From a virus, in the UHGV virus genome UHGV-1654121: a stretch of 12,530 nt of DNA. One strand, written 5' to 3'. Each line of letters starts with the position of its first letter. Position 1 is the first letter of the stretch. The translations under genes were made by a program, and so were the position numbers. This document shows, in pieces, positions 462 through 12,530 of the stretch. The notes under the pieces are model-generated. The model searched no databases. It was not told the origin of the DNA and saw only the letters and a program-made list of their open reading frames with translations.

Positions 462-2690
462 ATGTCCAAAAAAACCACCAAAGCTGTACTGAAAGAGGTG
501 CAGGATTTTCGCGACTGTGTAAAACGAGTTGTAGCGATGCTTTCAGGTAAACAGATACCTGTTGCAGAACGAGGCAATGAAGCATATGTCCGCTATAACC
601 GGCGCGGCGAACCAGTGCTGGTAAACATCCCATCTATACCGGACGACGCGTCGCCAACCCTCATGAACGTAGTGCGTGGTTTTCTCGACCATGAGGTGGC
701 CCATATTCTCTTTACTGAACCGAAAGTCGCAATGCAGATGCGCGAAAGAGGAAAGGCTCCGTCTACGGGGCTTTGGAATGCGCTGGAAGACGTTTTTATT
801 GAACGCAGAATGGGGCAGGTCTTTAACGGAACCCGGCGTAATTTACTTGCAACACAGAGTCTGGTTATCGACAAATACTTCAGGAATAAAGTACCAGAAG
901 CGGTTTTAGCCTGTCACGGAGACCAGCGTGAATTGTTTTTGAAATTCTTCCTTTGCCCGGTCGTCCGCGCCTGGGATGGACAAAGCCCCTTCATCGATTT
1001 TATGGAAGAACACTGGCGCCTTATCGAGAGGCCGGTAGCCTTACTAAAGGAGCATGGTATAGACGTGGCCGTTCGCAATATGTCGAACACTGAGGATTGC
1101 GTGAAGGTCGCTGCTGCTATAGCCCAAATCATGCAGGATATGAAAGACAAGCCAGAGGGCAAATTACCAGAACTTAAATCATCTGCCAGAAAGCCGTCGG
1201 AGAGCAAAGACGAGTCCGAGGAAACGCCAGAATCAGGTGACGAGCCGTCTCATGGTGACTCTGCATCTAAGCCTGCCAAAGGCGAAGGCGATGACAAGGA
1301 AGAACGAGAAGATGATGCATCAGAAGAGGAAGATTCTGGGGATTCCGATTTGCCTGATTCGTTAGATAAGGACTTACCTACACACGTTAAAGATATTAGT
1401 GATACAGAAAGTAAATATACAGAAGCAGGCCACGAAGAGTCAGGAGACACCCCAGAATCCGATGCTATCGGCATGAAATCAAGTGACTCTGACACCGATG
1501 GTGATGACGGTGAGGACTCCGATACTGATCGTGGGGAAACTGAAGAAGACGTCGAAGGCAAAAAAAATAAAGATGGTGCGGAAGTGCCCAAAGACAGTGA
1601 GTCTGGCTTTGTTCCTGCGCCGGATGAAATGACTCTGGAGGAGGCGCTAAAGGCGCTCGACGAGATGGAAGACGGAATCGGTGAAATGACCGAAGACGCA
1701 CTGTCGGCCACCATCAGCAAAGAGCTTATGAGCGTCTCACCTTCTGATTATCGGCCATACGATCGATCATACGACTTTATCGGGTTGATTGATGGAGCCG
1801 AAGAGCATGTGAAGCGCACCAGAAAGACGTTCGGTGCAATACCAATGCACTCACCAGTCGACCGCTACCGTATGGTGCCAGAAGGCAGAAAACTCTTTGA
1901 ACTGAAAATCGAAAAACATCTGTCTGCAGGCGTTTCTTCGACGCTGGCCAAAGACCTGGAGCGGGCCATCGCCAGCCGCAACCGAGTTCAGTTTATACCT
2001 GGTCAGAGGCGTGGGCGGATACATGGCGCGAGCCTGTATCGTCTGGCAATGAACGACGACCGAGTGTTCCGCAAGAAGGAAGACCATAGAGCGGTGAACG
2101 CGTGTGTCCAGCAGGTCATCGACTTGTCCGGCTCAATGGATGGCGTGAAGATTCAACTGGCCCTAGCCAGTGCCTATACCATTGCGGATGCTTTAGATCG
2201 TATCAATGTCCCCAACATCATCACCGGCTTTACCACGTTCGGTAGCCCAGATTATGAAACCAGGTCGAAGCGCGGGTTTACACGCTTCGAGGCGCTCATG
2301 CTGCCCATTATCAAAAACTGGAATGAGAAAGCAAACTCTCCAGAGATCCGTGCTCGCATGGGATGCGTATGTGAGACGTTCCCCCTGCTCAATAACGTCG
2401 ATGGTGAGAGTGTCGCGCAACTGGCTACCCTGTTTGCAGGGCGAATGGAGGACAAAAAGATCATGCTGGTTATGAGTGATGGGGAGCCATGTGCTACAGG
2501 TAGTGGATTCCATCAGCATTTACGAACCGTCACCAAAGAAATTGAGACCTTGAGCGACATCGAACTGATGGCTATCGGCATTCTGACCGACGAACCACGG
2601 CGTTACTACAAAAATTACGCACTGGTTAACAGTGTTGAAGAGTTAGGGCCGTCAGTCGTCACTGAGTTATCTCGTATCATTCTTGGGTAA
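462..2690 (+). CDS. CobT-like vWA-domain protein (partner of a MoxR/CobS-type AAA+ ATPase), with HExxH motif and long acidic low-complexity segment
   Basis: Start set at ATG 462 (in frame with track ORF 393..2690) because AAGGAA at 450-455 lies 6 nt upstream and the 393 ATG is buried in the 376-408 hairpin. HEVAH encoded at 690-704; D/E/S-rich low-complexity segment about 1150-1700; MIDAS-like DLSGSMDG encoded around 2121-2135 followed by vWA-like sequence (ITGFTTFG...MSDGEP). Confidence 0.75.
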   Translation: MSKKTTKAVLKEVQDFRDCVKRVVAMLSGKQIPVAERGNEAYVRYNRRGEPVLVNIPSIPDDASPTLMNVVRGFLDHEVAHILFTEPKVAMQMRERGKAPSTGLWNALEDVFIERRMGQVFNGTRRNLLATQSLVIDKYFRNKVPEAVLACHGDQRELFLKFFLCPVVRAWDGQSPFIDFMEEHWRLIERPVALLKEHGIDVAVRNMSNTEDCVKVAAAIAQIMQDMKDKPEGKLPELKSSARKPSESKDESEETPESGDEPSHGDSASKPAKGEGDDKEEREDDASEEEDSGDSDLPDSLDKDLPTHVKDISDTESKYTEAGHEESGDTPESDAIGMKSSDSDTDGDDGEDSDTDRGETEEDVEGKKNKDGAEVPKDSESGFVPAPDEMTLEEALKALDEMEDGIGEMTEDALSATISKELMSVSPSDYRPYDRSYDFIGLIDGAEEHVKRTRKTFGAIPMHSPVDRYRMVPEGRKLFELKIEKHLSAGVSSTLAKDLERAIASRNRVQFIPGQRRGRIHGASLYRLAMNDDRVFRKKEDHRAVNACVQQVIDLSGSMDGVKIQLALASAYTIADALDRINVPNIITGFTTFGSPDYETRSKRGFTRFEALMLPIIKNWNEKANSPEIRARMGCVCETFPLLNNVDGESVAQLATLFAGRMEDKKIMLVMSDGEPCATGSGFHQHLRTVTKEIETLSDIELMAIGILTDEPRRYYKNYALVNSVEELGPSVVTELSRIILG

Positions 2691-7200: not shown

Positions 7201-7720
7201 ACTGATGACGCGCATGGCGGCCGAAATGGGGCTGGGAGACAATCTAATCCGTCCAAGCATTGGTATTAAGCCAAAAATCATGGTTATTCTGGACAACGCG
7301 AACGGCAATGATGGGCGTACCGGCTACTTCATGGAGAACGGCTACGACGACTTTAAGGCGAAGTTGCTTACTGCCGGCGATCTGCGTATGGGCGATCTCT
7401 ACGTCACCGGCGTGTGCAAAAAGGTGAAGGACAAAGAGAAGGACTACACCAAAGACGAGATCGGTCAGTTCACCGACTTTATGCGTGAAGAGATCAATCT
7501 GGTGCGTCCGACCTATGTACTGACGTGTGGCAGCCGGGCGACGTCGCTCTTCAACAACAAGAGCAAACCATCCGACCTGGTTGGACGCAAAGAGTATCTG
7601 CCGGAGCTGGATGCGACCGTTTTCTACGGATTTAACCCGAATATCCTTTACTTCCGACCGGAAGAAGGAGAGCGACTGGAGGCCATTCTGACTGATATTG
7701 CGGAGACGATAAATAAGTAA
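4202..7720 (+). CDS. DnaE-type DNA polymerase (Pol III alpha-like catalytic subunit) with degenerate N-terminal PHP domain and atypical C-terminal domain
   Basis: Family-C polymerase signature blocks present: GPGRGSSAGSLVAWCIGIT..DP....LLFERFINPER, catalytic PDADLDF (Asp codons at 5453, 5459, 5465), AFDKRY, LYQEQTM, FNKSHSVAYSLISYQ..WLKTHYPAEF, then an HhH-like region. N-terminus (MVRTDFSLGES...AVISADS) lacks the His-x-His and TDH metal ligands of active PHP domains. The last roughly 150 aa (about 7259-7717) do not resemble the OB-fold/tau-binding tail. Confidence 0.9.
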   Translation: MKALMVRTDFSLGESALKAENAMKIARDAGYTAVISADSMNIASVIPLQRAAGDDMAVICGVKLNVVDDPTYEHRARLAKESGRCMESLVRDRSYCFTALIKNEQGYRDVCELMTLANKREQFYFVPRLALEQLAAAYAKGNIILLTSDIGSVFQRRDFAKIIGTLVTAGGRDNFYSVVYPHPTPFYDQINVRAMKVASALKIEPVAFYPAYYEAIDDADIKDIAHMVTNNIKIDQPHRLRIPHQRDNAVNGRRHLLEALKAFSVRMGVPVTAAMASTTQDTIIEACTWRWHELPPALPKMADDEPATLMKLAVAGLRKRLTTKEFGYTPPASEHRVYVERLKYEMDTLTRLGFCGYFLMVRDLMNHSRETGIPVGPGRGSSAGSLVAWCIGITNVDPIRHGLLFERFINPERLDLPDADLDFSQARRHEVIEYLNERYGEDYVAGIPNFTYLGAASALRDTARIYGVDAADMAVSKEFKNLEDDSLSLEELREQLASLDKYATKNPEAFKAACKLQSLMRGFGRHAAGMIVAGVPLVERTPVELRGNARCIAFDKRYCEAMGLIKLDVLGLATLDLLDSAKRYIKESTGEDINLDAIPLDDRKVLDGFAAGYTQGVFQLESGPMRKLLKDLGGGIEPMSFKTVVATTALFRPGPIQSGMLDDYVSVAKGFMAPQSLHPVLDELTAETNGVILYQEQTMNATRLLAGFTMAEADGVRKAIGKKDMEKMKSMGEKFVVQAQAGWIDVEMEDGTTQRIHRAEHFKCEDGALRTVEEALEAGVKLPMAAVRVTGSQPGLSETKAKEIWDAFEKNGAYQFNKSHSVAYSLISYQSMWLKTHYPAEFFAAALTILGEDKHQGLVKDALTYGIRVLPPDVNVSSNRIEIRTLEDGSQVLYAPFSAVKGCSENGCQAIMRAREKVGGKFESLAQFEESVEKRACNSRVRESLQKVGAFASIEPGCLPATDPERLRDQAELMGNLVIDAVKASRPFEMNPKRSAEVNVLMTRMAAEMGLGDNLIRPSIGIKPKIMVILDNANGNDGRTGYFMENGYDDFKAKLLTAGDLRMGDLYVTGVCKKVKDKEKDYTKDEIGQFTDFMREEINLVRPTYVLTCGSRATSLFNNKSKPSDLVGRKEYLPELDATVFYGFNPNILYFRPEEGERLEAILTDIAETINK

Positions 7721-7725
7721 TAAAG

Positions 7726-7750
7726 AAAAACCCGCCAAATGGCGGGTTTT
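7726..7750. terminator. Bidirectional rho-independent terminator between convergent genes
   Basis: aaaaa-CCCGCC-aaat-GGCGGG-tttt: 6-bp GC stem (7731-7736 / 7741-7746), 4-nt loop, A-tract upstream and T-tract downstream, placed 6 nt after the polymerase stop and overlapping the last codons of the convergent - strand gene. Confidence 0.7.
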
Positions 7751-8309
7751 ATGCGCAAATTTTTTCGCAGTCTTGCGAGTGACTGAGTGAGCGAGTAACT
7801 CTCTCCACCTCATGAATGTCGCCCAACGATCTTATACGCAGGGCAAGATTCCACGTACTCAATGTGCGCGCGTTACGCACCAGTTCTTCCCGTGCTTTTT
7901 CGTCTTTGCTGTCAAGACGACCGCAGTCGTTCAACCATTTAGCGACTTCCGCCCAGTCCCAGAGTGGAGACTGACCGCTGATACGCTGAACAGGGCAAGG
8001 AAAATCACCTTTGCCACGTAATCCGTCTTTAAGCAGAGTAATAGCCTGGCGCGTTAAGCCAGAGAGTTGAGCAATATCGCTCAAGCCTACCAGTGCTGAA
8101 TCTACCGATTCCACCACTGCGCCAATGCCTGCTGTTTCAATATCAAGGATTGCCGATTCGATTGCTTCATCTAAAGATTTAGCTTCTCGGTCAAATTCTA
8201 CATACACTGAGTTTCCGTAGTAGCAAATGAGCGCATCATCGCAACCGTGGCTATACAGAGCATCTGCGACTACACAGTACTGACTACAGGTTATCAGAAT
8301 TATCCCCAT
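7749..8309 (-). CDS. DNA-binding protein with C-terminal excisionase/AlpA-type HTH; N-terminal domain weakly HicB-like
   Basis: Only - strand gene in the window. C-terminal half LSDIAQLSGLTRQAITLLKDGLRGKGDFPCPVQRISGQSPLWDWAEVAKWL fits the HTH followed by a conserved W..EV..WL pattern seen in AlpA/excisionase-like HTH domains. N-terminal half (YSHGCDDAL...DREAKSLDEAIESAILDIE) loosely resembles the HicB-type antitoxin fold. No obvious SD upstream of the ATG at 8309. Confidence 0.55.
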   Translation of the reverse strand: MGIILITCSQYCVVADALYSHGCDDALICYYGNSVYVEFDREAKSLDEAIESAILDIETAGIGAVVESVDSALVGLSDIAQLSGLTRQAITLLKDGLRGKGDFPCPVQRISGQSPLWDWAEVAKWLNDCGRLDSKDEKAREELVRNARTLSTWNLALRIRSLGDIHEVERVTRSLSHSQDCEKICA

Positions 8310-8376: not shown

Positions 8377-8850
8377 ATGATAAAATTGATATACGAAAAT
8401 AAGTATATAGATAACATTATGAGCACCGATATCTACGAAAAAATCATGTCCGATCTGGAGTTCGACCGCGACAATCTGGAGGAAGTCTGGCGTCAGCAAC
8501 CGCGCCTGTTGATGGAGTATGGCTCTAAGCTGGCGCGGGCAGAACGTGAGGTTGCAGATGCAAAACTCTCTCTCGACGCGATCGAGGCAAAAATCTATGA
8601 CAACGAGCGTAAGAGCTTGAGTATGAATGGAATTAAATTTAATGAATCCGTACTGGAAGCGAAGGTTAGAACCAACCCGCAATACCTCGCAAAGCGCCAG
8701 AAACTCGACGATGCTCGACACATTGCAGACCTGTACAAGCACGCTGTAGCCGCCTTCTCCCACCGCCGCGATATGATTGTCCAGGCGTCGAAGATGGCTA
8801 TCGTAGAGATAGAGCGTCTGGGGGCCGAACGATTCCATTTACCCCGTTAA
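8377..8850 (+). CDS. Coiled-coil protein, possibly a UvsY-like recombination mediator
   Basis: Charged, helix-rich 157-aa ORF co-oriented with the downstream SSB; length and coiled-coil character resemble UvsY, but no signature motif is confidently matched. Start uncertain (ATG 8377 or ATG 8419; neither has a clear SD). Preferred over the overlapping - strand ORF 8329..8838, which has antisense-like L/R/C/F-rich composition. Confidence 0.5.
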   Translation: MIKLIYENKYIDNIMSTDIYEKIMSDLEFDRDNLEEVWRQQPRLLMEYGSKLARAEREVADAKLSLDAIEAKIYDNERKSLSMNGIKFNESVLEAKVRTNPQYLAKRQKLDDARHIADLYKHAVAAFSHRRDMIVQASKMAIVEIERLGAERFHLPR

Positions 8851-8969
8851 TTTATGCTAGATAGTAAGTAAGTACTGATCTATCATTCTTCTCGCTCGAA
8901 AGAGCCACGAACAAACGAACGCCCAATGCGCATAGCGCCAATGGCCACAATCACAACAAGGAGAAATAC

Positions 8970-9986
8970 ATGTCTAAGTCATTACTTGATCTGCTTAACA
9001 AGACCCGTGGCGATATTGCTTCCAAACGTGGCAATAACATTGATTTGACCCGTCTGAAAGATGGCAATAACTATCTGCGCATTTTTCCGAACAAGGACGA
9101 TCCGAATGGCGTGTTCTTCCAGACTTTCGGTATGCACTACGTTAAGCATCAGAATGAGGAAGGCAAAGATGTAACCACCGCCTATATCTGCGAACAACAC
9201 ACCCACGGCCACGCTTGCCAGCTGTGTGAGATGGTTATGGAAGGTCGCGCTCGCTTTAAGGGCAACAAAGCGATGGAAGAGCGCATTAATAGTATGCGTG
9301 CTACGCCGCGTTATCTGGTCAACGGTGTTCTGTCTGCGCGTGAAGACTTTGCGGACGCAGAGAAATGCCAGCTGATTGAGCTGCCGTCTACGGTCTTCGA
9401 CGATATCTGCAAAGTGATGTCCGAAGATATTGCGGACGATATTGGCAACCCACTGAGCAAAGAAGAAGGCTATGCGTTCCTGATTAAACGCACCGGTTCC
9501 GGTCGTGACACCAAGTACGACGTATCCCCGAAACGTAAAGTCTACAAAGGCGACATTCCTGAGAAGCTCTGGACTACCCAACACGATCTGATCGCATATG
9601 CGAACCAGGCTGACGAAACTCGTTTGCTGTCCACGGCTCGCACTATGGGTCGTCTGATTGGTATTGCGGCTCCGGCAGCAACTATGTCCTCACCAGCCAT
9701 TTCTTCCGCTGCAAAATCAGCCGCAGCTGGACTGCCAGGCTTTGGCTCTATCACTGGTCATACGGAAGGCGCAGCTGCTGTCGCTACAGCACATACTCCG
9801 GCGCCAGAGTCCACCAGCCTGGTTGATGAAGAGATCCTGCGTGCCGCTGAAGCTGAGTTCAAACCGGAAGAAGCGAAAGCTCCGGAAGCCACCGAAGCCG
9901 CAAGTGCTTCAGCATCTGCTGCCGCTGCATCTGTACCAGCTGATGAAGGTCTCGATAACCTGCTGGCTGAACTGGACGCTCTGTAA
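8970..9986 (+). CDS. T4 gp32-like single-stranded DNA-binding protein
   Basis: AAGGAG at 8958-8963 with a 6-nt spacer. N-terminal block LRIFPNKDDPNGVFF and His/Cys cluster H60...C74-x8-C83-x2-C86 (encoded about 9147-9227) parallel the gp32 Zn-binding subdomain (H-x12-C-x9-C-x2-C in T4). Ala/Ser-rich linker and acidic C-terminal tail (...DEGLDNLLAELDAL) are typical of SSB partner-interaction tails. Confidence 0.8.
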   Translation: MSKSLLDLLNKTRGDIASKRGNNIDLTRLKDGNNYLRIFPNKDDPNGVFFQTFGMHYVKHQNEEGKDVTTAYICEQHTHGHACQLCEMVMEGRARFKGNKAMEERINSMRATPRYLVNGVLSAREDFADAEKCQLIELPSTVFDDICKVMSEDIADDIGNPLSKEEGYAFLIKRTGSGRDTKYDVSPKRKVYKGDIPEKLWTTQHDLIAYANQADETRLLSTARTMGRLIGIAAPAATMSSPAISSAAKSAAAGLPGFGSITGHTEGAAAVATAHTPAPESTSLVDEEILRAAEAEFKPEEAKAPEATEAASASASAAAASVPADEGLDNLLAELDAL

Positions 9987-10002: not shown

Positions 10003-10031
10003 GTAAGGCGTCTGCGGACGCCTTACTTTTT
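10003..10031 (+). terminator. Rho-independent terminator downstream of the SSB gene
   Basis: gtaaggcgtc-tgcg-gacgccttac followed by ttttt: 10-bp stem (10003-10012 / 10017-10026), 4-nt loop, T-run 10027-10031; located 17 nt after the SSB stop codon. Confidence 0.75.
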
Positions 10032-10046
10032 GGAAGGAGTGTACCG

Positions 10047-10991
10047 GTGAATTATCTCTTTGTGGACGGTAACAGCCTGGGCTATTACCACCAGCAATCC
10101 GACAAATTACACAACGGCGAGATGGAAGTTCAGGCGGCTTTTGGCTTCGTGAAGAACGTTCGTCGTTACGCCTCAATTCTCCATGCCCGGCCAATGATCT
10201 TGTGGGATGGATTCAGCGACAAACGTCGCGACTTCTACCCGGAGTACAAAGCGAACCGCGACGACGACCCGGACATGAAGAAGATGAAAGAAGGCTTTGC
10301 CATCCAGAAGCCGTACATCTTGAAAATGATGACCGCGCTGGGCGTTAACCAACTCATTGCAAAGGACGCAGAAGCGGATGACCTGGCTGGAATGCTGGTC
10401 TCTCGTCTGGCTCCGCAGCCGACTGTTGACCATATCTATCTGCTAACGGGCGATGGCGACTGGCTCCAGCTTGTTCGTGAGAACGTGAGCTGGATAAGCC
10501 TGCGTGAAGACGCCAAGCACAAGCAGGTGAACTTCGAACAGTTCGCAGAGCTGACCGGTCTGCCGACCCCACGCGCGTTTCTGGAAGCGAAAGCGTTGCA
10601 GGGCGATAACTCGGACAACATCAAAGGCGTAGGTGGCATTGGTGATGGTGGCGCGAAAGAGCTGCTTCATGAATGGGGAAGCGTGGCCGCAATGGTACGC
10701 GGCATTAACGACGGTTCCATTGTCATCAACAAAGGTCGCTATAAGACGGCATTCAACAAGCTGGCAAAGAACGCCTTCAACGAGAAGACGGGCTGCCGGA
10801 TGCTCGAAGCCTTTAAGCGCAACATGATGCTGATGAACCTTATCGACACAAAATTCCCACCCAGCGAAATCGAGTCGATTAAAGGCGCACGCGATATGAG
10901 CGCCTTTGAACAGATGTGTTACGAGCTGAATTTCCGTTCGTTTCTGGAAGATCTGGAAGTGTTTGTTCTGCCGTTTGAGAGGTATTGCTGA
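10047..10991 (+). CDS. 5'-3' exonuclease / flap endonuclease (FEN, T4 RNase H / Pol I 5'-exo family)
   Basis: Conserved FEN blocks: (M)NYLFVDGNSLGYY, ILWDGFSDKRRDFYPEYKANRDD, EADDLAGML, LLTGDGDWLQLV, H3TH-like GDNSDNIKGVGGIG. Start placed at GTG 10047 (GGAAGGAG at 10032-10039, 7-nt spacer) rather than track start 9996, because the intervening sequence is the 10003-10031 terminator. Confidence 0.85.
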   Translation: MNYLFVDGNSLGYYHQQSDKLHNGEMEVQAAFGFVKNVRRYASILHARPMILWDGFSDKRRDFYPEYKANRDDDPDMKKMKEGFAIQKPYILKMMTALGVNQLIAKDAEADDLAGMLVSRLAPQPTVDHIYLLTGDGDWLQLVRENVSWISLREDAKHKQVNFEQFAELTGLPTPRAFLEAKALQGDNSDNIKGVGGIGDGGAKELLHEWGSVAAMVRGINDGSIVINKGRYKTAFNKLAKNAFNEKTGCRMLEAFKRNMMLMNLIDTKFPPSEIESIKGARDMSAFEQMCYELNFRSFLEDLEVFVLPFERYC

Positions 10992-11259: not shown

Positions 11260-12530
11260 ATGGCAAAAGGCAAATCCGCACTGGCACTGGCGCTGAAAAA
11301 GAAAATCGGCAGCAATGACGAGATTCAGAAGGTCTCCCACTGGATTGACTCCGGTTTCCCTCCACTGAACAAAGCCATTTCCGGACGTTACGACGGTGGT
11401 TTTCCGTGTGGGCGTATCGTTGAAGTCTTCGGGCCACCAAGCGCGGGGAAATGTGTTACCGCAGACACCATGCTGCTGACGGAGCGTGGAATGGTAACAG
11501 TGAAAGAACTGTTTGAGATTGAGGGGCACAAAGCAACATGCACTACTCGCGATGTAGAGCATAACGTTGGACTCATCAATGAAAATGGCGTGATAGAGAA
11601 GACCTCACACCTGACATGGAACAACCGTCGCAAATTCAAGCGCATTAAGCTGGCATCAGGGGGTTACATCGAGGCTACGTTCCGTCACCCAATTCGTGTG
11701 GTTGACGACTTAGGCAATATCGTCTGGCGGTATGCTGAAAAAATCAGTGTAGGCGACACGATTCCTTCAATGGTTGGCACACATCAATTCGGCGATCAGC
11801 ACTTGGATGCCAATATCGCAAAACTGATGGGCTATTTAATTGCTGACGGATACGTGGCCTCTGAAAATTCTGTGCATTTTTCTAACACAGCTCCATTCAT
11901 CAAGGATGAGTACTACCGCCTCATTTCGCTGGTATCAGACAAGATGCCAGTTACGAGAAAACATAACGGCTCGGAAGACCATGTGCTGTTTAGCAAAGAG
12001 GTGCGTTCGCTGCTTTTTAAAGAATATGGTCTGGAGTATGAGAAAGCTGCTTGCAAGCAGGTTCAGTTGAGTGTGCGTCGCGCCAATAGCGAGGCTCAAA
12101 TTGCATTCCTTCGCGGCTACTTTGAGCTGGAATGCCACGTCAATGATGGTCGCTGCATTGAGGTTGTGAGCGCGAGTGGGCTGCTGCTACAGCAAATTCG
12201 CCTCATGCTCCTGAATCTGGGGATTGCGTCAACTATCTCTGAAAAACACGTCGCAGGTTATAAAAACATATATTACCGGCTGTCATTCAGTGGCTCTAAC
12301 TACGACCTTTTCCTGTCAACGATTGGGTTCGAGTCTCCGGCTCGTTTAGCAGTGGCAACCAAACGGGACATTAGTTTTGACCGCACTTATTTAGGCTACG
12401 TTCCGCACATCAGCGGCTTAGTGAAATCACTCTACGAGTCACTCACCAAGACCTCTCGTAAAGACTACGTTCTGGTAGATCACGTTCTTGGCCGCGGCGA
12501 TCGTGTCGGAATAGACAAACTGCGAGAAAT
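11260..12530 (+). CDS. RecA-like recombinase, N-extein plus intein-interrupted P-loop (partial; continues beyond window)
   Basis: AAGGAG at 11247-11252, ATG 11260. N-extein ...GFPCGRIVEVFGPPSAGK closely parallels bacterial RecA GRIVEIYGPESSGKT; the reading frame stays open to the window end. After GK the sequence switches to intein blocks (see mobile_element). Confidence 0.85.
   Translation, partial: MAKGKSALALALKKKIGSNDEIQKVSHWIDSGFPPLNKAISGRYDGGFPCGRIVEVFGPPSAGKCVTADTMLLTERGMVTVKELFEIEGHKATCTTRDVEHNVGLINENGVIEKTSHLTWNNRRKFKRIKLASGGYIEATFRHPIRVVDDLGNIVWRYAEKISVGDTIPSMVGTHQFGDQHLDANIAKLMGYLIADGYVASENSVHFSNTAPFIKDEYYRLISLVSDKMPVTRKHNGSEDHVLFSKEVRSLLFKEYGLEYEKAACKQVQLSVRRANSEAQIAFLRGYFELECHVNDGRCIEVVSASGLLLQQIRLMLLNLGIASTISEKHVAGYKNIYYRLSFSGSNYDLFLSTIGFESPARLAVATKRDISFDRTYLGYVPHISGLVKSLYESLTKTSRKDYVLVDHVLGRGDRVGIDKLRE
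11452..12530 (+). mobile_element. Intein with LAGLIDADG homing-endonuclease domain inserted in the Walker A (P-loop) of the recombinase (partial; C-terminal splice junction outside window)
   Basis: Intein block A starts at Cys codon TGT 11452-11454 (CVTADTMLLTERGMVTVKEL); block B-like GGYIEATFRHPIRV (T..H); LAGLIDADG motif 1 KLMGYLIADGYV (about 11824-11856); motif 2 AFLRGYFELECHV (about 12103-12135). Insertion directly after GPPSAGK implies the missing Thr of GKT is the +1 C-extein nucleophile. Confidence 0.8.

Follow-up and report, generated by a model that had tools for sequence, protein, structure and literature searches.

The gene under study, a genuine open reading frame at 8970..9986 on the plus strand of the 12,530-nt stretch of viral DNA analyzed here (the window), very probably encodes a true T4 gp32-family single-stranded DNA-binding protein (SSB) of an SSU5-like phage-plasmid, with a predicted zinc site and an acidic tail. 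The frame comprises 338 aa plus a stop codon; its position and the C-terminal sequence quoted in an earlier note on this DNA were as that note gave them. The gene is an ordinary family member whose identity is already known in public records.

Family membership and fold

The earlier note had proposed a gp32-like SSB, and this was borne out by the profile matches, the predicted fold, the alignment, and the neighboring genes (Table 1). The Pfam gp32 profile PF08804 gave a very strong match (E=9e-72; 241.9 bits vs a cutoff of 26.8), in which residues 30-230 aligned to positions 1-208 of 208, i.e. to the entire profile. T4 gp32, used as a control on the same profile, yielded E=4.9e-67. PHROG 1192, annotated 'single strand DNA binding protein', aligned residues 1-337 to profile positions 1-325 of 326 (E=5e-120), and hhalign comparison of the family alignment with T4 gp32 returned a probability of 93.7%. 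Searching PDB sequences with the single sequence by phmmer did not retrieve gp32, all matches being noise due to the Ala-rich tail, so that profile and fold methods were required. The relationship to T4 gp32 is thus remote (about 15-18% identity to the T4 and RB69 proteins in structural alignments), resting on profiles and fold. NCBIfam has no model for the window protein, nor for T4 gp32.

In the AF2 model, the core was predicted with a pLDDT of 85-92. Foldseek against the PDB revealed six significant matches, all of them to gp32 (RB69 2a1k/2atq and T4 1gpc/8gme; prob 1.0, target-normalised TM 0.45-0.65), while the next matches had E > 0.1. Preceding the core, an amphipathic helix was predicted at residues 3-20, and M1, L5, L8, and L9 were invariant or nearly so in the A1 alignment. 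Read against the domain organization of T4 gp32 (PMC11551737), residues 1-29 probably form the cooperativity segment. A (K/R)3(S/T)2 LAST-type basic motif was sought within this segment and none was found.

Table 1. Features of the gp32 gene and its surroundings (window coordinates)
Feature	Position	Strand	Basis
UvsY-like mediator gene, upstream of gp32	8419-8850		structure match
Promoter-like element (TAGATA, 17 nt, TATCAT)	8858..8886	+	consensus scan
Imperfect palindrome of 18 bp, TAAGTAAGTACTGATCTA; copy of a dispersed element with consensus TARGTAAGTRYTTACYTA	8865..8882	.	copy counts
Hairpin 1, GCUC-GAAA-GAGC, 7 nt past the -10-like hexamer	8894..8905	+	MFE fold
Hairpin 2, GCC-CAAU-GCGC-AUA-GCGC-CAAU-GGC	8921..8945	+	MFE fold
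A/C-rich unstructured tract with Shine-Dalgarno AAGGAG (8958-8963)	8946..8969	+	sequence
gp32-family ssDNA-binding protein gene	8970..9986	+	ORF, PF08804, PHROG 1192, SSU5_057/CYRAN_53 identity
N-terminal segment, residues 1-29, candidate for cooperativity (B-domain-like)	8970..9056	+	A1 alignment, AF2
ssDNA-binding core, OB fold with zinc subdomain, residues 30-230	9057..9659	+	Pfam, AF2, Foldseek
His56 codon, predicted zinc ligand (T4 His64 equivalent)	9135..9137	+	141/141 conserved, alignment
His60 codon, ligand proposed earlier, variable	9147..9149	+	alignment to T4 K68
Cys74/Cys83/Cys86 codons, predicted zinc ligands	9189..9227 (9189-9191, 9216-9218, 9225-9227)	+	alignment to T4 Cys77/87/90
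Disordered acidic tail, residues 231-338 (A-domain equivalent)	9660..9983	+	AF2, composition
Tail island 1, LPGFGSITGH, residues 255-264, SSU5-like clade only	9732..9761	+	A1 alignment, family set
Tail island 2, SLVDEEILRAAEAEFKPE, residues 283-300, short helix then Phe in acidic context	9816..9869	+	A1, AF2
C-terminal motif DEGLDNLLAELDAL, residues 325-338, predicted amphipathic helix	9942..9983	+	AF2, A1
Intrinsic-terminator-like hairpin GUAAGGCGUC-UGCG-GACGCCUUAC then UUUUU	10003..10031	+	sequence, ViennaRNA
FEN-type 5'-3' exonuclease gene, probable start GTG 10047	10047-10991		
RecA-like recombinase gene	from 11260		

Host element and gene neighborhood

The host element is an SSU5-like phage-plasmid, with 95.1% identity to SSU5 over 1501 nt and 99.9% identity to the E. 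coli plasmid NZ_CP074043. Matches were present in 771 plasmid records, a scan of genome contigs added only nine loci, and gene order agreed with that of SSU5 and related plasmids. A DnaE polymerase gene lies upstream, and the order DnaE ... 143-146-aa protein, gp32, FEN, small ORF, RecA persisted in relatives with identities as low as 26%.

A model of the protein encoded immediately upstream of gp32 (pLDDT 92) matched T4 UvsY in the fold search with a TM of 0.72-0.93. Aligning its family to T4 UvsY by hhalign gave a probability of 0.2%, and Pfam was negative as well. The fold search alone connects this protein to UvsY and suggests that its gene may be a previously unrecognized UvsY-like mediator gene. 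From their adjacency alone, the UvsY-like, FEN, and RecA-like proteins are likely partners of the SSB.

Putative transcription signals and a dispersed palindrome

With a promoter-like element of its own, a hairpin at the predicted 5' end of the mRNA, a short A/C-rich region around the ribosome-binding site (RBS), and a terminator-like hairpin right behind the stop codon, the gene resembles a self-contained cassette, in which transcription is predicted to start and stop. The promoter-like element matched the consensus at 9/12 positions, with a weak -35. The block TAAGTAAGTACTGATCTATYAT upstream of gp32 was conserved even in relatives where protein identity falls to 26-48%. A LexA box was considered in this region for a TACTG half-site and was ruled out, as it has no CAG partner. 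In all relatives examined, the 3' hairpin kept its position between gp32 and the FEN gene, with differing stem sequences. A simple scan for terminators missed it.

Within the promoter-like element, the palindrome occupies the stretch between the two hexamers and overlaps the -10-like one. Three copies were present in the window, vs 0.02 expected. SSU5 (100 kb) contained 38 matches, vs 2-8 in shuffled sequences, and 35 of these 38 were intergenic. This distribution, with about 30 recurrences in SSU5, speaks for the idea that expression is governed mainly at the DNA level, by a dimeric phage-plasmid regulator that binds the palindrome and thereby controls many units, including gp32. This regulator would either repress transcription while the element is a plasmid or activate -35-less promoters; candidates for it are the SSU5 genes annotated as repressor-like, SSU5_116, SSU5_121, and SSU5_054. 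Placement of the palindrome between the two hexamers, and its retention upstream of gp32 where the proteins are only 26-48% identical, point the same way. However, at many sites the palindrome is only 0-18 nt away from the start codon that follows, or is flanked by co-directional structural genes, so it is not a promoter at every site. A role at the RNA level, as a processing or stabilizing hairpin, or as a roadblock is equally possible. We place control at the DNA level a little short of an even chance. In the searchable literature, nothing relevant turned up on the palindrome sequence, nor on SSU5 regulation or gp32.

Leader RNA

The spacer between the upstream stop codon (8848-8850) and the gene is 119 nt, as the earlier note had it, and that note suggested that it could support gp32-style translational autoregulation. 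Both T4 gp32 and RB69 gp32 are known to repress their own translation (PMC535899). In the T4 gene 32 operator, a 5' H-type pseudoknot of about 28 nt serves as the nucleation site, and > 40 nt of unstructured RNA carry UUAAA/UAAA repeats and include the RBS (PMC535899).

The window leader does not look like a T4-type operator. Its first third is promoter-like and contains the palindrome. A search of 8887-8972 for H-type pseudoknots with both stems of at least 4 bp gave zero candidates, whereas the identical search yielded one in the T4 leader, used as a control. No UUAAA/UAAA units were present in the leader, and the unstructured RNA before the AUG spanned about 24 nt (8946-8969), vs > 40 in T4. 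The fold of the whole leader was no more stable than those of shuffled sequences (z=-1.46), and Rfam at a permissive threshold gave no match to it. The check that the earlier note had offered for 8851-8969, a pseudoknot plus an unstructured tract, thus revealed neither a T4-like pseudoknot nor a long unstructured tract, which weakens the idea of gp32-style autoregulation.

Two hairpins were predicted instead. For hairpin 1, 92% of cells were paired, variants were G.U only, and a hairpin of differing sequence occupied its position in 10 of 12 divergent leaders; it is probably the 5'-terminal stem-loop of the mRNA. The stems of hairpin 2 were kept while its loop varied (AUA/AAA/ACA/ACC/ACG) across the SSU5, Klebsiella, and Cyrano clades, and the element was missing in more distant relatives. 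An in-register covariation test of both hairpins found no compensatory pairs, with a score not above that of shuffles, so their support consists of paired fraction, loop variability, and positional conservation.

Could the protein still repress its own translation as in T4, nucleating on a structured leader element and spreading cooperatively across an unstructured tract that covers the RBS? Beyond the precedent in T4 and RB69, the hairpins lie upstream of an unstructured tract, and the surroundings of the RBS are A/C-rich, U-poor, and weakly structured. The A+C content at -30..-1 was 73% (rank 8 of 107 SSU5 genes), and the MFE of the RBS region was -1.8 kcal/mol (rank 17 of 107). More distant relatives have A-rich, G-poor leaders of 50-90 nt; one (L012) has five 8-nt CNGYAAAA repeats, and another (L100) has UAAUUAAAUUAAUUAA, reminiscent of the T4 tract. 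However, the loops of the two hairpins (GAAA, 4 nt, and AUA, 3 nt) are too short to pseudoknot, and several other SSU5 genes have equally A/C-rich, unstructured RBS regions. Together with the missing operator elements, this makes T4-like self-repression unlikely. The A/C-rich RBS region fits a general translation-enhancing leader, and autogenous translational repression may exist in some non-T4 form.

An undescribed two-layer control is also conceivable, in which a regulator of the genome-wide palindrome, with its about 30 intergenic copies, operates a plasmid/lytic switch for gp32 and many other units, and the SSB regulates itself, free of any pseudoknot, on the A/C-rich leader between the 5'-terminal hairpin and the RBS. 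We regard this combination as rather doubtful. If it were true, what is new would be the palindrome system and not the SSB.

C-terminal tail

The tail that follows the core is rich in Ala (31%) and Ser (11%) and carries a net charge of -12. In the AF2 model it was disordered (pLDDT < 50 at 238-286 and 293-324) except for helices at 284-292 and 326-337. We compared it with a family-wide set of 141 sequences (139 representatives at 50% identity, the query, and T4 gp32). The earlier note described an unusually long linker, which overstated the case: the 108 aa fall inside the family range (median 81; 5th-95th percentile 54-110), and 11 of the 141 representatives have tails of at least 108 aa, the longest reaching 193 aa. 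Net charge equaled the family median, and Ala/Pro/Ser-rich spacers were the norm across the family. Ala content was above that of the family (19.5%).

The accompanying description of the tail as low-complexity was accurate for its Ala/Ser-rich composition and acidic end, but the presence of three conserved short motifs means that it is not a featureless linker. In island 1, P256 and G257 were nearly invariant in the A1 alignment, and the motif occurred in only 2 of the 141 family-wide sequences. In island 2, S283, E288, A292, and F297 were conserved (A1). An internal Phe with acidic surroundings was found in 72 of 141 family tails, T4 among them; the T4 counterpart of this island, helix 250-264 with F265, binds Dda (PMC11551737). 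Within the C-terminal motif, E334, L335, and L338 were conserved (A1). Of 141 family members, 103 had the pattern [LIVMF][DEN]x[LIVMFA][LIVMFY]xx[LIVMF] within their final 20 aa, and T4 gp32 ends in DLDDLLNDL, of the same LDxLLxxL type. Disorder, net charge, and the terminal and Phe motifs support the view, already taken in the earlier note, that this acidic end is probably a docking tail, and by analogy with T4 it would be a partner-docking A domain.

That the Ala/Ser-rich tail has been specially adapted, for example to a novel function or to scaffolding phase separation, and is not an ordinary A domain is very unlikely. Its length in about the top 8% of the family, its elevated Ala content, and the clade-specific LPGFGSxTGH island, which has no counterpart elsewhere, could be read that way. 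However, length, charge, and terminal motif all lie inside the family distribution, the spacers are of a common type, and PHROG 1192 covers the whole length of the protein.

Predicted zinc site

The predicted zinc ligands are His56, Cys74, Cys83, and Cys86. Within the 141-member alignment, H56 was conserved in 141, C74 in 140, C83 in 141, and C86 in 139 sequences, and H56 was likewise invariant in the A1 alignment. These residues align with H64, C77, C87, and C90, the zinc ligands of T4 gp32 (PMC8549804). The earlier note had proposed a T4-like His/Cys site with H60 as its histidine, and was right about the three cysteines, which are conserved in homologs (139-141 of 141), and wrong about H60, which is variable. 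His60 is almost certainly not a ligand: spacing alone favors it, as its gap of 13 residues to Cys74 is nearest to the 12 of T4, but its column holds mainly D/G/N/T/S family-wide (H/Y/S/T/G/D among close relatives; K68 in T4), and in the AF2 beta-hairpin (strands 55-61 and 67-73) it sits near the tip, whereas the invariant H56 sits at the base beside C74.

Proposed function and significance

By analogy with T4, the protein would coat ssDNA cooperatively during replication and recombination of the phage-plasmid. The tail would be folded back on the core until DNA is bound, and in the DNA-bound state it would recruit partners.

In itself, the gene is of little consequence, being a routine, annotated replication/recombination SSB. 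Its host family consists of very common enterobacterial phage-plasmids, with relatives on plasmids of Salmonella, Klebsiella, E. coli, and Yersinia pestis. What is gained is the correction of the zinc ligand to H56, a map of three conserved tail motifs on which studies of interactions could draw, structural evidence for a UvsY-like mediator adjoining the gp32 gene, and a dispersed intergenic palindrome that may mark a regulatory circuit of clinically widespread elements.

Comparison with known systems

Orthologues in the same element family are among the closest known systems. SSU5_057 of Salmonella phage SSU5 (95% nt identity) is annotated 'single strand DNA binding protein', and CYRAN_53 of Escherichia phage Cyrano (79% nt identity) is annotated 'SSB T4 gp32-like'. 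These and the orthologues on pHCM2/pMT1-type plasmids have 78-100% protein identity and share neighbors, leader elements, and terminator, differing by small indels within the Ala/Ser-rich tail, with protein lengths of 326-348 aa. The NCBI pipeline often names such orthologues just 'regulator' or 'hypothetical protein'.

With gp32 of T4 (1GPC, 8GME) and RB69 (2A1K), the window protein shares the Pfam family, the core fold, four aligned zinc ligands, and the arrangement of N-terminal segment, core, and acidic disordered tail. Also shared are an acidic, Phe-containing tail helix, a terminal LDxLLxxL, and neighboring genes of the UvsY-type mediator, RNase H/FEN-type nuclease, and RecA/UvsX-type recombinase kinds. 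Beyond the low identity, several properties differ from T4. The zinc site is spaced H-x17-C vs H-x12-C, the hairpin being 5 residues longer here; the LAST motif is missing; and the tail is 108 aa and Ala/Glu-rich, vs 62 aa and Ser/Asp-rich. The leader, without pseudoknot or UUAAA repeats, has an A/C-rich rather than an A/U-rich tract. The host here is a temperate phage-plasmid with a DnaE-type polymerase, whereas T4 is virulent with a family-B polymerase.

E. coli SSB, whose C-terminal tip would work in like manner to the tail here, belongs to an unrelated family and is a homotetramer with no zinc and another motif sequence. Its disordered, low-complexity linker presents an acidic-hydrophobic tip, DDDIPF, which recruits many genome-maintenance proteins.

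Family membership and origin

The open reading frame at 8970-9986 (+) is a real gene of 338 aa, with a translation that agrees with the sequence quoted in the earlier note, and its product is a standard gp32-family single-stranded DNA-binding protein (SSB), real but ordinary and already annotated. The gp32 assignment made in that note was borne out by Pfam PF08804 (gp32), which matched residues 30-230 over the whole profile (E=9e-72); T4 gp32 (from NC_000866) scored E=4.9e-67 on the same model. PHROG 1192 (SSB) matched residues 1-337 (E=5e-120), and the tail therefore belongs to the family architecture. A profile of 18 homologues aligned to T4 gp32 with a probability of 93.7%. The single sequence found nothing by phmmer against PDB sequences, so the relationship to T4 gp32 is remote. 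Modelling with AlphaFold from these 18 aligned sequences gave a confident core (pLDDT 85-92, residues 30-232). The sole significant Foldseek matches in the PDB were gp32 cores from RB69 (2a1k, 2atq) and T4 (1gpc, 8gme), with probability 1.0 and target-normalised TM of 0.45-0.65; all later matches had E > 0.1. An exhaustive profile search returned 1850 cluster representatives at E <= 1e-3, and the gp32 family is therefore large.

The region shares 95.1% identity with Salmonella phage SSU5, 79-82% with Klebsiella and Escherichia phage-plasmids (e.g. Cyrano), and 99.9% with E. coli plasmid NZ_CP074043; matches occur in 771 plasmid records (Klebsiella, Escherichia, Enterobacter, Yersinia, Salmonella, and others). 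Because the orthologues SSU5_057 and CYRAN_53 are annotated as 'single strand DNA binding protein' (RefSeq) and 'SSB T4 gp32-like' (Cyrano), the SSB/gp32 interpretation is already public. Most orthologues are named merely 'regulator' or 'hypothetical protein' by the NCBI pipeline, despite a Pfam gp32 match of ~1e-70. NCBIfam contained no model covering these orthologues, nor one covering T4 gp32. More interesting than the SSB is the incidental material: a dispersed palindrome, a structurally detectable UvsY-like protein, and an intein-like insertion in the RecA-like gene.

Features of the gp32 gene, its product, and its surroundings
Feature	Position	Strand	T4 counterpart	Description
Hairpin AAAACCCGCCATTTGGCGGGTTTT	7727-7750			between convergent DnaE and minus-strand regulator genes
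143-aa 'hypothetical protein'	8419-8850	+		PHROG 2058, function not annotated
Palindrome copies	8865-8882, 2709-2726, 1363-1380			3 vs 0.02 expected in the window
Hairpin 1, GCUC-GAAA-GAGC	8894-8905			begins 7 nt past -10-like hexamer
Hairpin 2	8921-8945			stems conserved, loop variable; closer clades only
A/C-rich tract	8946-8969			~24 nt, includes Shine-Dalgarno
Shine-Dalgarno sequence AAGGAG	8958-8963	+
3' hairpin	10003-10031	+		perfect 10-bp GC-rich stem, UGCG loop, five U's; between gp32 stop and FEN gene
H56	residue 56		H64	conserved 141/141
H60	residue 60		K68	variable, mostly D/G/N/T/S (n=141)
C74	residue 74		C77	conserved 140/141
C83	residue 83		C87	conserved 141/141
C86	residue 86		C90	conserved 139/141
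Tail island LPGFGSITGH	residues 255-264			clade-specific, 2/141 in family-wide set
Tail island SLVDEEILRAAEAEFKPE	residues 283-300			predicted helix 284-292, acidic-context Phe at end
Tail island DEGLDNLLAELDAL	residues 325-338			predicted helix 326-337

Predicted zinc site

The zinc ligands of T4 gp32 are His64, Cys77, Cys87, and Cys90 (PMC8549804). The earlier note had proposed His60, Cys74, Cys83, and Cys86, all of which are present at those positions. In a family-wide alignment of 141 sequences (139 representatives, the query, and T4 gp32), the three cysteines aligned with the T4 ligands, but the histidine did not; H56 takes its place. In a set of 18 homologues, some close and some moderately distant, H56, C74, C83, and C86 were invariant, while the H60 column held H, Y, S, T, G, or D. 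The neighbouring H77, H79, and H81 were also not conserved. H60 had been chosen because its spacing to C74 is nearest to that of T4; the β-hairpin between the histidine and the first cysteine is longer by 5 residues in the window's clade than in T4 gp32. The model forms this hairpin from strands 55-61 and 67-73, which would place H56 at its base beside C74 and H60 near its tip.

C-terminal tail

When counted from query residue 230 in the alignment, the tail spans 108 aa, compared to 62 aa in T4 gp32 and a family median of 81 (5th-95th percentile 54-110, maximum 193; n=141). Tails as long or longer occurred in 11 of the 141 sequences. The tail described as unusually long is thus long but not exceptional, lying within the family range. 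Its net charge of -12 equals the family median, its Ala content is enriched (31% vs 19.5% in the family), and Ala/Ser/Pro-rich spacers are the rule among gp32 proteins. The supposed low-complexity linker with an acidic/amphipathic end is indeed Ala-rich and acidic, but is not featureless, as it contains three conserved islands. The acidic-context Phe was found in 72/141 family tails, T4 included, and a motif matching DEGLDNLLAELDAL lay within the last 20 residues of 103/141 members; the T4 C-terminus, DLDDLLNDL, resembles it.

The A domain of T4 gp32 includes a helix (residues 248-270) that docks onto the Dda helicase through V258, L262, and F265; the whole domain recruits gp59, UvsX, UvsY, and Dda (PMC11551737). 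By analogy, the suggestion that the tail serves as a docking site is reasonable. The docking surface probably comprises two or more motifs, such that the tip alone is an insufficient description.

Gene neighbourhood

The gene order is CobT/vWA-like, CobS/AAA-like, DnaE, a minus-strand regulator pair, the 143-aa protein, gp32, a FEN-type 5'-3' exonuclease, a small ORF, and RecA-like. Relatives with an SSB identity as low as 26% retain this arrangement. The 143-aa protein had no Pfam match, and hhalign against T4 UvsY gave no signal. Its AlphaFold model (pLDDT 92) had T4 UvsY crystal structures (4zwq/4zwt/4zwr/4zws) as its top 19 Foldseek matches, with TM 0.66-0.93 and rmsd 1.2-5.3 Å (best 1.2-3.5 Å) over 128-139 aligned columns, at borderline E-values of 1.6e-3 to 3.5e-2, none at 1e-3. 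These fold matches support the 'UvsY' label in Cyrano. The modelled fold makes the protein a likely recombination mediator missed by sequence methods, and a UvsY-like neighbour would thus place the SSB in a T4-like recombination module.

The RecA-like gene (11260-12530, +), which runs off the window end, carries an intein-like insertion directly after Walker A (GPPSAGK, then CVTADT...) with a LAGLIDADG-type motif, LMGYLIADGYV. The SSU5 orthologue lacks the insertion and is 1077 nt long; that of Cyrano is 2340 nt. The minus-strand gene at 7749-8309 (-) matches PHROG 2620, 'excisionase and transcriptional regulator'; its Cyrano counterpart is annotated as a HicB antitoxin, and a small HicA-like partner gene lies upstream. 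The two, located between dnaE and the recombination module, possibly represent an inserted toxin-antitoxin or regulator pair. Weak sub-threshold Rfam matches at 7696-7831 on both strands (rnk leader, STnc420, Trp leader) all coincide with the single hairpin AAAACCCGCCATTTGGCGGGTTTT, which is most simply a bidirectional terminator and none of these RNA families.

Promoter-like block, palindrome, and proposed transcription unit

Comparison of 55 distinct regions upstream of gp32 in relatives revealed a conserved block, TAAGTAAGTACTGATCTATYAT, in the first ~36 nt of the leader; the block persists even at protein identities of only 26-48% (Xenorhabdus, Morganella, Halomonas, and metagenomic loci). 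The block coincides with a σ70-like match (TAGATA, 17 nt, TATCAT; 9/12). At its core is an imperfect 18-bp palindrome, consensus TARGTAAGTRYTTACYTA, frequently flanked by TCAT or TTTT and conserved upstream of gp32 even in very distant relatives. SSU5 (NC_018843) contained 38 matches in 100 kb at <=4 mismatches, compared to 2-8 in shuffles, with the palindrome at ~30 sites (e.g. 2032, 27475, 67776, 77652, 79905, and 84179). Matches were intergenic in 35 of 38 cases and occurred in both structural and replication modules. Many copies end 0-18 nt 5' of a start codon, and the palindrome is therefore not a promoter everywhere; it may act as an operator, activator site, or RNA hairpin. No description of it was found in the searchable literature.

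The 3' hairpin lies immediately past the gp32 stop codon and was missed by a simple terminator scan. Every relative examined has a hairpin at this position, differing in sequence. GTG 10047 is the probable start of the FEN gene, rather than the mechanically listed GTG 9996. Together, the upstream promoter-like block and the 3' hairpin suggest that gp32 is transcribed as a unit of its own, probably at a high level.

Leader and the proposed autoregulation

The upstream stop codon (8848-8850) leaves a 119-nt spacer before gp32. Hairpins of different sequence occurred at the position of hairpin 1 in 10 of 12 divergent leaders, which suggests a stem-loop at the transcript 5' end. Such 5'-terminal stem-loops stabilise E. 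coli mRNAs. In-register pair counting of the leader hairpins found 92% of cells paired; compensatory changes were absent and the score did not exceed that of shuffles, so covariation support is weak. The whole 140-nt region folded no better than shuffles (z=-1.46) and matched no Rfam families. Its ribosome-binding region is A/C-rich (rank 8/107 among SSU5 genes) and weakly folded (rank 17/107), as in several other SSU5 genes, which fits a general translation-friendly leader.

The earlier note had envisaged T4-style translational autoregulation. The T4 operator consists of a ~28-nt pseudoknot followed by >40 unstructured nt with UUAAA/UAAA repeats (PMC535899), and the window leader lacks these defining features. 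A simple enumeration of H-type pseudoknots gave zero candidates, compared to one in the T4 leader control; the loops of the two hairpins, 4 and 3 nt, leave too little room for a pseudoknot; UUAAA/UAAA units are absent from the leader; and the unstructured tract is short (~24 nt vs >40 nt). Some form of SSB autoregulation is unlikely here, and is retained as a candidate because certain distant relatives have long A-rich repeat leaders. The leaders of two such relatives are better candidates than that of the window itself: locus L012 (4854-5000) has an A-rich leader with five tandem 8-nt CUGUAAAA-like units, and the Xenorhabdus plasmid locus L100 carries UAAUUAAAUUAAUUAA upstream of 2495, resembling the UUAAA tract of T4 gene 32.
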